A program made the translations under genes and the position numbers. Of a DNA stretch of 34,073 bases, positions 6,252 through 16,210 are shown piece by piece. The notes below the pieces were generated by a model that did not search any database, had not been told where the DNA came from, and was given only the letters and a program-made list of their open reading frames with translations. Position 1 is the first letter of the stretch, and each line of letters begins with the position of its first letter. This DNA is from Nitrososphaeraceae archaeon (lineage in GTDB: Archaea; Thermoproteota; Nitrososphaeria; Nitrososphaerales; Nitrososphaeraceae), in contig JBIOZG010000055.1 in assembly GCA_044870765.1 (NCBI GenBank), positions 1 to 34,073 on the forward strand. The letters are read 5' to 3'.

Positions 6252-6842
6252 TTAGACTTCTTGCAAGTACCATCCTTGTGGCAGTAAAAGATTCCTGAAA
6301 GGTTCTTCGCCAACATGTGTTGCATAACGCCATATTTTTTGTCCATCCAGAGCGTTGAATCTGCAGCTGATTCTGTTCAGCGCTCTTAATTCGTTATCAA
6401 GTAAATTTTTACTTGCCTGATTTGAGTATTGACACGAAAATTTGCAATTTGAGTCAAGTTCCACAGTCGTTCTACACTCTTTTATTACAGGATAAGCGCG
6501 ACAAGCAAAAGGTCTTGCCTCATATATATGGCAATTAAAACCTCCATTTGGAGCGCGATTATTACTTTTTATGTCTAGGAATGGGCAATAGTCACCGTCG
6601 ATATTACCCATTAGCTGATATGCGATGACTTGGCGAGGGCCATTTGATTTTTTATTACTGCCGATTCCCAGTCTTGGAAATATGGTTATGCTGATTTGGG
6701 AGAGTTTAGCTAGACCTTCGATTTGCTTTTTTTCCTCCGGTAAAAGAAGAACTCCTATTTTTCCGTAATCTACTGAAGGATAGTATTGGCGGTATATACA
6801 GCAGTCAGAACAGTCCTGGACGCAATGAAATTCTCTAAGCAT
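6252..6842 (-). CDS. YkgJ-family cysteine-cluster (putative Fe-S/Zn) protein
   Basis: FHCVQDCSDCC, CPFLD, CHIYEARPFACRAYP motifs. Confidence 0.88.
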   Translation of the reverse strand: MLREFHCVQDCSDCCIYRQYYPSVDYGKIGVLLLPEEKKQIEGLAKLSQISITIFPRLGIGSNKKSNGPRQVIAYQLMGNIDGDYCPFLDIKSNNRAPNGGFNCHIYEARPFACRAYPVIKECRTTVELDSNCKFSCQYSNQASKNLLDNELRALNRISCRFNALDGQKIWRYATHVGEEPFRNLLLPQGWYLQEV

Positions 6843-7374
6843 TTTGCCACTCAGTGTTATTTATTAATGAATGTTCAAGACTATTCTCTTCAAGTTCATT
6901 TAATTTTAGAAATTTCACATCATAAATAGTCTTCATTCTTTTAAAGATATTAAGTTCGTAGGTAGCTGTAGCTTTGTTACTAGAATCATCTACACGATTT
7001 TCCAGAACATTGTTCTTGTCTGCAATTTTTTTTTCGAGGGATTTGTAAAGCGCAAATCGCAAAATCGTCTTTTCTTCAAAGTTCTTTTTGAACCTTAAAT
7101 AATTTTGAGTAAGAGCACTTTTCTTGAAAAAACCAATATTTTCTTTTGAAAGGAGATTCTTGCCTCTTTGATATAGGATGAACCAATAATCTTCCTTTTC
7201 TTCTATGAATCTTAAAATTATCTGGTCATCTGGCCACCAATGGATATACTCATTCCATGTTTTTAGTGCAATTTTTCGGTCGGTGTATAATATTAAAATA
7301 TTCATGGTTATGTCAGTATATCTGTAGCCTATACCTGCAAAGTGAGAAATCCAATTTTTCTCCATAATATCCAA
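6835..7374 (-). CDS. Hypothetical protein
   Basis: 179-aa ORF overlapping the YkgJ gene by 8 bp (likely operon). Confidence 0.65.
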   Translation of the reverse strand: MDIMEKNWISHFAGIGYRYTDITMNILILYTDRKIALKTWNEYIHWWPDDQIILRFIEEKEDYWFILYQRGKNLLSKENIGFFKKSALTQNYLRFKKNFEEKTILRFALYKSLEKKIADKNNVLENRVDDSSNKATATYELNIFKRMKTIYDVKFLKLNELEENSLEHSLINNTEWQNA

Positions 7375-7498
7375 TTTAATGAAACCTTAAAGTAAACTTA
7401 TCTAACAATCTATTTCATTCGACCTGGGTTAACTCATTACTCTATATTTGAGATGACAAAATGCCTCATATGATTACTAAGCAGGAATTTGAATAGAT

Positions 7499-7553
7499 TT
7501 GCAACTTGCCTCAGAGGGATAACAATAAAACTCATCATTGGCAAGTGTCGCAA
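7499..7553 (-). ncRNA. Single-guide box C/D sRNA, predicted to target 23S rRNA PTC
   Basis: Minus strand UUGCGAC-ACUUGCC-A-AUGAUGA-guuuuauuguuaucccu-CUGA-GGCAAGU-UGCAA: perfect box C (7532-7538) and box D (7511-7514), 7-bp terminal stem plus extension, 3-nt K-turn bulge; guide complementary to AGGGAUAACA. Confidence 0.8.
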
Positions 7554-7572
7554 TAGAAATAATCAACAAATA

Positions 7573-7580
7573 ATTTAAAG
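7573..7580 (-). promoter_or_regulatory. TATA box for the C/D sRNA
   Basis: CTTTAAAT on minus strand about 20-27 nt upstream of the predicted sRNA 5' end. Confidence 0.5.
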
Positions 7581-7609
7581 TTTGAGCTATTGAATTTTCG
7601 CCGTGATTG

Positions 7610-7786
7610 TCAAGTTTTTTCTACAGCTTCAATATGACATTCATGGCCTCTGTGAGCCTCGCTAAGATGTAAAGCCTCTTCATCTGTGATTGGGAATTTT
7701 TCGTAACTCAAGTTTTTCTCTCCTTCTTTTTCTAAAAGAATTTGTTTGCATTCATCACATATTAATTGGAGGAATATCTTGCCCAT
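7610..7786 (-). CDS. Small putative zinc-binding protein (58 aa), absent from ORF track
   Basis: MGKIFLQLICDECKQILLEKEGEKNLSYEKFPITDEEALHLSEAHRGHECHIEAVEKT; CxxC...HxxH. Confidence 0.75.
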   Translation of the reverse strand: MGKIFLQLICDECKQILLEKEGEKNLSYEKFPITDEEALHLSEAHRGHECHIEAVEKT

Positions 7787-7846
7787 GCCTAAAGTATTGT
7801 AACTAGGTTATTTAGACCATTGCCAGAAAGATGCCGTTACACTGCT

Positions 7847-8488
7847 TTATTCTATTGATCTGACGGCTGGTTTATTCTTGTACCTTAAGAACAAAAAGTA
7901 AGTAAGTAAAATAAAAACAATAGCAGTTGTCACATAGGCAATGTCGATAAGGACGCCTTTATCATTAATAATTGTGCAGGGGAACTCTCCATTAGAACAG
8001 CCAGCAGCAAAAAAAATCAAATTCCATATTGAATGGGATATGATGGCAAACCATCCTTTCCCGCTTATCCATGTTCTTAGACTTGCAAAAATGGATGGTG
8101 TTACAAATAACCAAGTTAAATAAGCAAGACTATTGACCTGCACGCTTGGCGTATTTAGAATATGCAATGATGCCCAAACGATACCTCCTGCAAGAGCTAC
8201 AATATTGTTTCCTGTTAGGTAAAAGGGAATTCCAAAAAACAGCGTCTCTTCAAAAGGACCTGCAGATATAACCGAAATGACTGATAGAGGTATAGTGGGC
8301 TCTGTGTATTGATTAACAACAAGATCAACTATTACCGAGCCTATTATCATGATTGCAAAACCGATTAAATGGTAAAACAGTATCATAATTGTCATGTAAT
8401 AGACGGAATTTCGCCTATACTTTGAAATCCATGAAAGGGGATTAAAATCAGTTTTCAAGTCAGCGAATAAAGGTCTTGATGATGACAA
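7847..8488 (-). CDS. CPBP-family (Abi/CAAX-like) intramembrane glutamic protease
   Basis: Multi-TM; GPFEETLFFG, WASLH and HSIWN motifs. Confidence 0.8.
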   Translation of the reverse strand: MSSSRPLFADLKTDFNPLSWISKYRRNSVYYMTIMILFYHLIGFAIMIIGSVIVDLVVNQYTEPTIPLSVISVISAGPFEETLFFGIPFYLTGNNIVALAGGIVWASLHILNTPSVQVNSLAYLTWLFVTPSIFASLRTWISGKGWFAIISHSIWNLIFFAAGCSNGEFPCTIINDKGVLIDIAYVTTAIVFILLTYFLFLRYKNKPAVRSIE

Positions 8489-15474: not shown

Positions 15475-15549
15475 GCGACGGTCGTCCAGTTTGGTCTAGG
15501 ACATCAGATTGCCAATCTGGTAACCCGGGTTCAAATCCCGGCCGTCGCA
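15475..15549 (+). tRNA. tRNA-Gly (GCC), intronless, CCA not encoded
   Basis: Acceptor GCGACGG/CCGTCGC, D arm GTCC/GGAC, anticodon arm TCAGA-TTGCCAA-TCTGG, T arm CCGGG-TTCAAAT-CCCGG, discriminator A. Confidence 0.97.
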
Positions 15550-16147: not shown

Positions 16148-16210
16148 ATGGTCAGTTACCCTAGTGCTTTCATCATCTAAGTAATCAGCAAAGAGTAATC
16201 TTCATCCCAT
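16148..16210 (-). ncRNA. Bipartite box C/D sRNA
   Basis: Minus strand AUGG-G-AUGAAGA(C)-uuacucuuug-CUGA(D')-uuacuuag-AUGAUGA(C')-aagcacuaggguaa-CUGA(D)-CCAU then CUUUUU; all four boxes in canonical order and spacing, terminal stem, upstream TATA-like CTTAATAG at 16233-16240. Confidence 0.88.

Follow-up and report, generated by a model that had tools for sequence, protein, structure and literature searches.

A conserved single-domain box C/D-type guide RNA gene in the Nitrososphaeraceae

Can an archaeon build a methylation guide from half of a box C/D sRNA? The question is raised by a locus on contig JBIOZG010000055.1 of a soil Nitrososphaeraceae archaeon related to ammonia oxidizers (assembly GCA_044870765.1), of which positions 1 to 34,073 were analyzed (34,073 nt; hereafter, the window). 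A sequence-only reading had proposed that 7499 to 7553 encode a guide RNA with one kink-turn, one antisense loop, and no C'/D' motif; by the prevailing view, natural archaeal guides do not take this form. According to PMC1635284, archaeal C/D and C'/D' motifs are both needed in vitro, a single-site RNP is active but unspecific or weak, and the pseudo-symmetric architecture is "absolutely conserved" in natural complexes; PMC6770171 likewise describes the symmetrical two-domain RNP as essential in Archaea. For twenty years it has been debated whether archaeal C/D enzymes require both kink motifs, Nop5 dimerization, and a mono- or a di-RNP for activity and site choice, and that debate has so far been built on natural two-domain RNAs or artificial half-molecules. 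In the literature, with supplementary sRNA tables outside the scope, we found neither a precedent for a natural archaeal single-domain C/D sRNA nor a C/D study of the Nitrososphaeria. The analysis described here supports the core of the proposal: the locus is a genuine and conserved gene for a guide RNA of the box C/D type with a single domain.

The element lies on the minus strand, with its core at 7546 to 7504 and its outer limits at 7553 to 7499, and the RNA reads 5'-UUGC GAC ACUUGCC AAU GAUGA GUUUUAUUGUUAUCCCU CUGA GGCAAGU UGCAA-3'. On this strand, box C (AUGAUGA, 7538 to 7532 by sequence reading) and box D (CUGA, 7511 to 7514) are 17 nt apart and are closed by a 7-bp stem (stem I) between ACUUGCC (7540 to 7546) and GGCAAGU (7504 to 7510), exactly as had been claimed. 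Within 7532 to 7539, A7539, A7538, and U7537 constitute a 3-nt bulge, the last two being also the first two bases of box C. The sequence therefore has the CC-AAU-GA/GA-GG layout put forward in the first reading, that is, a predicted kink-turn in which a short helix is followed by a 3-nt bulge and by tandem G.A pairs. The loop as a whole, GUUUUAUUGUUAUCCCU (7531 to 7515, 17 nt from box C to box D), comprises a variable spacer, GUUUUA (7526 to 7531), followed by the 11 bases abutting box D, which form the guide UUGUUAUCCCU (7515 to 7525); U7519 is the fifth base 5' of box D. Since the 17-nt loop contains no GA dinucleotide, a C'/D' motif is impossible, and the 15- to 18-nt loops of the orthologues leave no room for one. 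The first reading had also delimited the whole element as 7499 to 7553 by adding an outer 5-bp extension. In this genome 4 to 5 bp are present there (7553-7549 with 7503-7499), but the extension is not kept in relatives, and an A.C mismatch is found already in the 97%-identical genome G083. The fold of the element alone is unremarkable (-13.3 kcal/mol, z = -1.8). Features of an H/ACA sRNA are lacking, in that the 7-bp stem runs without interruption to the kink-turn and there is no ACA after it.

Archaeal transcription starts are marked by a TATA box centered approximately 26 nt upstream. A TATA-like box, TTTAAAT, is located at 7579 to 7573 on the minus strand, 33 nt 5' of the first stem base, and this distance predicts a transcription start zone at 7547 to 7551 (minus strand). 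One RNA-library contig terminates at 7547, which is only a hint for that zone. In same-genus orthologues the box is 39 to 41 nt from the GCC of the stem (counted by eye) and the bases between them vary, so the distance is fixed, in agreement with the suggestion that the element has its own TATA box. The g16 copies described below (L095 to L098) have a conserved TTTAAG/TTTAGG 0 to 4 nt 5' of the stem, which is too close to serve as a TATA box of their own, and transcription in g16 may differ from that in the genus of the element (g1).

Both flanking ORFs are on the minus strand, one of 58 aa upstream (7610 to 7786) and the other downstream (6835 to 7374, with an ATG at 7365). The element lies 57 nt past the stop of the former and 139 nt 5' of the next ATG. 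The 58-aa ORF is Cys/His rich (…CDEC…HRGHECH…), and has no Pfam family. Most genomes of the genus keep it 5' of the element, and it is conserved in the clade without the element as well. No functional link was found to the neighboring proteins, which are a CxxCxxCC-domain protein, an Rce1-like protease, and two ORFs without a Pfam family.

In order to estimate how often such an arrangement arises by chance, exact RUGAUGA-N10-22-CUGA pairs were counted in the 2.0-Mb, 36% G+C genome. There are 44, and a 7-bp stem occurs only in the element studied here; shuffled genomes gave 0.2 7-bp-stem pairs per genome. A box-D-anchored Watson-Crick match to rRNA of at least 10 was seen in 1 of the 44 real candidates (again this element) versus 5 of 1,201 shuffled ones. 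When unlimited G.U pairs were allowed, 105 of 624 shuffled candidates reached 11; an rRNA match alone is thus not rare, and the case rests on joint occurrence plus conservation. We found no second single-domain gene in this genome. A candidate on contig C15 (47659 to 47686) was a false positive, its box C being lost in relatives, and candidates on contigs C2 and C12 lie inside long ORFs.

A DNA search of 151 family genomes located the element in 15 other genomes of the genus; this tally includes G035 and G099, which are flagged as unpublished and whose weak matches were not used. The covariance-model search that the first reading had asked for was then carried out with a model built from 15 sequences. 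It recovered the element in 15 of the 21 other same-genus genomes, the same ones as the DNA search, and scored in 5 of 11 genomes of genus g16, 4 of them clean on inspection. The clean g16 RNAs also are single domain, with CGGU-GAU-GAUGA, a 15- to 16-nt loop, and CUGA-ACCG. There was one weak match in g13, and outside the family, in 126 genomes from 19 families of the same order, no match was credible. Weak matches of the model in G088, G013, and G446 were non-sRNA-like or partial and were discarded. We also inspected named records encoding the downstream ORF, whose titles refer to Nitrososphaeraceae, Nitrososphaerales, or Thaumarchaeota MAGs; the element is present in all 16 that include the upstream flank, and 7 of these sequences were new. 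Simpler searches were of little use. A search across the class for an exact 13-mer gave matches in 38 of 401 genomes, but among 30 loci inspected, 20 were coding-like and had neither box C nor the stem, and a reversed-pattern control gave 10 matches. A two-mismatch pattern search in five large genomes was uninformative, the match frequency being no higher than that of the control. The second exact 13-mer in G115 (contig C69) has no box C nearby and was rejected as non-sRNA.

Alignment of 26 sequences (22 from g1 and 4 from g16) revealed a column entropy of 0 to 0.5 bit for the boxes and for the nine guide positions that adjoin box D, compared with 0.2 to 1.5 bit in the 5' loop and 1.3 to 1.7 bit in the flanks. 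Box D (CUGA) is present in all 26 sequences, the GA of box C is kept in 25 (the exception is G137, with AUUAUGA), and the 9-nt guide core, GUUAUCCCU, is almost invariant. Loop length ranges from 15 to 18 nt among orthologues, and the 5' loop sequence is variable. Near-invariant boxes and core combined with a variable 5' loop, flanks, and loop length are typical of a guide. An unconserved loop under a conserved stem had been named as the result that would speak against a guide; instead, conservation at the locus is highest in the box-D-proximal loop. Stem I is paired in 93.3% of cells, with both-sided changes at 5 of its 7 pairs in the 26 sequences. Its covariation score was reached by 0 of 500 shuffles and slid controls were far lower, in an alignment that was fitted to the model and in which much of the signal comes from the g16 rows, g1 alone giving a modest one.

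The 9 to 13 loop bases adjoining box D make up the guide region, which is complementary to 23S rRNA in the central loop of domain V. The 23S gene of this organism is absent from the assembly (genome completeness, 96.65%), so same-genus rRNAs were substituted; the full 23S genes of three same-genus genomes read CCCUAGGGAUAACAGGCUCG. The guide UUGUUAUCCCU forms 10 Watson-Crick pairs and 1 G.U pair with AGGGAUAACAG (LSU 2512 to 2522 in G066), which agrees with the 10- to 11-nt antisense proposed earlier, and the second A, position 2516 in G066, is opposite the fifth guide base. In the E. coli record, GGGAUAACAGG begins at 2444 of the 2,903-nt annotated 23S. Judging by the landmarks A2058-A2060 and A2503, this copy numbers one behind the standard, which makes A2448 the predicted site. 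Read from sequence, the N+5 rule would therefore point to E. coli A2448, three bases from A2451. The assignment to the A2451 region thus holds for the pairing, but the predicted N+5 target is A2448 and not A2451 itself. In literature listings we found no report of methylation at A2448. An unbroken 9- to 13-bp duplex with the 23S site is kept in 24 of the 26 aligned sequences. Guide positions 11 and 12 are U or C, either of which pairs with G2454/G2455; two g16 genomes carry C and have 11 Watson-Crick pairs inside 12- to 13-bp duplexes, and the duplex is just 9 bp in g12/g17 and in two g1 sequences. 16S rRNA was considered as a target and rejected, as GGAUAAC is missing from 4 of 5 same-genus 16S sequences and lies in a different context in the fifth.

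At gathering thresholds, the only Rfam match in the full window was a tRNA gene (15475 to 15549, plus strand). The weak matches in a 251-nt stretch were C/D snoRNA families in 20 of 20 cases, 19 of them on the strand of the element. The best for 7504 to 7546 (minus strand) was snoR38 (RF00213), whose score of 25 bits is below the gathering threshold of 45, and membership in that family was rejected. The snoR38 consensus antisense element, ACAGUUAUCCCU, covers the same rRNA stretch, and unlike the element snoR38 is a 91-position two-domain snoRNA with its antisense element placed differently. Gm2815 of yeast 25S rRNA, which we take by offset to be E. coli G2446, is two bases from the predicted site. 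This modification is directed by yeast snR38 (PMC5027498). The rRNA stretch is a guide target in both domains, and the likeness to snoR38 probably reflects convergence or very deep ancestry on the target rather than family membership.

The same D guide and CUGA occur in genera g5, g12, and g17 within ordinary bipartite sRNAs. The six inspected are laid out as stem, RUGAAGA, D' guide, D', short loop, AUGAU-type C', spacer, GUUAUCCCU, CUGA, and stem. In g12 and g17 these genes are directly 5' of homologues of the two ORFs of g1 (176 aa, 39 to 44% identity; 196 aa, 45 to 56% identity), and g5 has the other neighbor in common with g12/g17. Given these homologous neighbors, the bipartite sRNAs are positional orthologues of the short RNA; the g16 copy sits among different neighbors. 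With the guide as the anchor, the short form has its box C where the long form has C' (7 to 8 versus 5 to 7 nt before GUUAUCCCU), and the 3' flanks are alike (GCCAAUUGCAUAUC versus GGCAAGUUGCAAAUC). In the canonical sRNAs of the lineage that were examined, the terminal box C is RUGAAGA and the internal C' is of the AUGAU type (AUGAUGA, AUGAUUA, or AUGAUAG); box C of the short RNA is of the C' type. Its place at the C' position of a bipartite sRNA that is syntenic in sister genera suggests that the element is the surviving C'-guide-D half. The D' guides of the long orthologues have no rRNA match above 7 bp. The 5' half of a bipartite ancestor (box C, box D', and the orphan D' guide between them) would have been lost, its box C' would have become the terminal box C, and a new 5' strand would have closed the remaining half. 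The direction of this change, from bipartite to short, is suggested by parsimony rather than by a rooted tree. A related single-domain-like element is found in genus g3 (L031 in G074, approximately 505 to 560: GAUGAUGA GUUUUAUGUAUGUUAUCCAUC AUGA GGC). Its box D is the variant AUGA and its guide is altered, and it may be a shifted-register or decayed relative.

Two canonical bipartite C/D sRNAs of the same genome served as internal controls. The first lies in the window at 16152 to 16205 on the minus strand, with a stem at approximately 16149 to 16208, and reads GGG AUGAAGA UUACUCUUUG CUGA UUACUUAG AUGAUGA AAGCACUAGGGUAA CUGA CC. Its D guide pairs over 9 bp with 23S UUACCCUAG, a stretch on the immediate 5' side of the element's own target that shares 2 bases with it, and its N+5 position lands 7 bases upstream of the A2448 equivalent. 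It is kept in 18 of 26 genus genomes, a tally that includes the unpublished G160. The second is on contig C5 of the same genome (G000; 91362 to 91417, minus strand) and consists of a 7-bp stem, GUGAAGA, a 12-nt D' guide, CUAA, a loop, AUGAUGA, a 12-nt D guide, and CUGA. By the same tally, again with G160, it is kept in 24 of 26 genus genomes, the large-genome clade included. Its D' guide forms 10 bp with LSU 1983 to 1992 (G066 numbering), and its D guide has no rRNA match.

Like such bipartite sRNAs, the element has boxes C and D, the terminal kink-turn layout with its short stem, and a guide immediately 5' of box D in N+5 register, with a target near the peptidyl-transferase center; the genes for the partner proteins are the same, and so is the locus in the case of the bipartite orthologues. 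It differs in lacking the internal C'/D' (K-loop) and the second guide, and in having a box spacing of 15 to 18 nt rather than two 12-nt-class spacers around a K-loop. Its core totals about 43 nt, as against about 54 to 62 nt from box C to box D in the canonical sRNAs examined. The genome encodes the proteins of the C/D RNP: the genes for Nop5 and fibrillarin are adjacent on contig C48, and that for L7Ae is on C5. Nop5 (412 aa) aligns without gaps over residues 94 to 371 with the S. solfataricus Nop5 of solved C/D RNPs, and the dimerizing coiled coil is therefore present. In this comparison we saw no protein-level adaptation to a half-size RNA.

Taken together, these features indicate that the RNA is probably a natural single-domain methylation guide for the A2448 equivalent, a prediction drawn from sequence comparison. 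The terminal kink-turn (box C, box D, and the 7-bp stem) would close the 15- to 18-nt loop and would be bound by L7Ae, and Nop5-fibrillarin would dock onto the L7Ae-bound kink-turn. During ribosome assembly the loop would pair with 23S AGGGAUAACAG(G), and fibrillarin would 2'-O-methylate the A opposite the fifth guide base, E. coli A2448. The second site of the Nop5 dimer would be either empty or occupied by a second copy of the same RNA. Engineered RNAs come close to this design. In PMC6770171, a single-domain guide with a 1-nt spacer and a 14-nt antisense is fully functional in Xenopus oocytes; it has the same size and design, but is man-made and eukaryotic, whereas the element is natural, archaeal, and conserved, and the two bases after box C that are critical in that guide are unconserved here. 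The engineered archaeal hemi- and half-mers (Hardin and Batey 2006, PMC1635284; PMC6239191) likewise have one C/D motif, one guide, and archaeal proteins, and PMC6239191 reviews a crystal structure of a half-mer RNA on Pyrococcus proteins. These molecules are synthetic and their guide is free ended or fused to the target, whereas the guide of the element is in a closed loop.

We also considered that the RNA might be a real kink-turn sRNA, bound by L7Ae with or without Nop5-fibrillarin, that pairs with the peptidyl-transferase loop of 23S rRNA as a chaperone or transient mask and does not methylate it. Selection on pairing would explain the conserved guide equally well, the canonical sRNA at 16152 to 16205 targets the stretch immediately 5' on the same rRNA, as would fit a folding role, and archaeal single-site RNPs lose specificity in vitro, as reported in PMC1635284. 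We nevertheless regard this as unlikely. The register between guide and box D is kept exactly, in the two genera as well as in the bipartite orthologues, and it matters only for N+5 methylation; moreover, PMC6770171 describes an engineered eukaryotic RNA that shares this design and works as a methylation guide.

The methylation guide reading must also account for the damaged and missing copies. Disabling changes are present in 4 of the 23 species-level sequences of the genus. Box C is AUUAUGA in G137 (L010), the guide CCC has become AGC and a stem mismatch is present in G125 (L019), box D and part of the guide are lost in G115 (L013), and in L187 a C opposite the target A creates a mismatch at the N+5 base. 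The element is absent from the six larger genomes of the genus (2.6 to 3.7 Mb), the syntenic spacer containing no C/D motif in any of the five that were inspected, and this absence indicates that the single-domain gene is dispensable. Losses of this kind, together with the disappearance of half of the canonical architecture, are what a decaying remnant of a bipartite sRNA, partly transcribed and functionless, would be expected to show. Such a remnant is nonetheless a rather improbable explanation, since both boxes, the guide core, and a pairing stem are intact in 19 of the 23 sequences despite flanks that are only about 78% identical or unrecognizable, the stem has compensatory changes, the promoter box is conserved, and the same design is maintained in a second genus, g16.

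Contigs from all four RNA libraries (four studies) cover the element; they do not show strand, ends, or size and may include DNA, gaps in their coverage carry no information, and they give weak support for expression. Contigs of two studies end at 7483 and 7481, a weak hint of the 3' end, and contig X18 (7547 to 7776) ends one base short of the stem. A 255-nt X15 contig matches just 7504 to 7546, with both flanks foreign, and is the orthologue of a relative within the RNA library. Contigs X17 (7483 to 7868), X20 (7481 to 7631), and X15 (7081 to 7832) each join the element to the upstream ORF, and cotranscription with the 58-aa ORF is thus possible. Like the L7Ae-binding mRNA kink-turns of Sulfolobus described by Daume et al. 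2017 (PMC5539422), the element has a consensus kink-turn that L7Ae should bind; those, by contrast, are in 5' UTRs and are without a conserved rRNA antisense, whereas the element has a promoter box and a guide and does not lie near the start of a regulated ORF. That the element should be merely a regulatory or stabilizing L7Ae site in the UTR of a neighboring mRNA, or the terminator hairpin of the 58-aa ORF, with no separate guide RNA, is very improbable despite the Sulfolobus precedent (PMC5539422) and the contigs from three of the four runs that extend across it from that ORF, because its rRNA-antisense loop is conserved and would be unnecessary for a protein-binding site, its own TATA-like box is at a fixed distance, it is intact in G145 and G075 though the 58-aa ORF is missing there, the downstream ORF starts at a distance of 139 nt and is preceded by a TATA-like box of its own, 26 nt 5' of the ATG, and the neighbors in g16 differ. 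The idea that the element exists only inside a longer mRNA UTR, which had been raised as a test of the guide proposal, is thus not upheld.

On the reading of the element as a methylation guide, we put forward, tentatively and at somewhat less than even confidence, that the Nitrososphaeraceae natively use a half-size guide. Their L7Ae-Nop5-fibrillarin enzyme would then be site specific with a single-domain RNA, either as an asymmetric complex in which one Nop5 site is empty or with two 43- to 47-nt RNAs per Nop5 dimer. The locus offers a ready-made test system: sister genera carry bipartite orthologues in the same place, sister species carry loss variants, and the only target is three bases away from the catalytic residue A2451; the loss variants (L013, L019, L010, and L187) are natural controls for a methylation assay. 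sRNA finders that require four boxes would miss real genes of this kind in mesophilic archaea with few guides. If the proposal is correct, it would overturn the notion that archaeal guides must be symmetric two-domain RNAs. Through intermediates that still exist at a single locus, it would also document the collapse of a bipartite guide to its C'-guide-D half, a step in the direction of the asymmetric eukaryotic snoRNAs.
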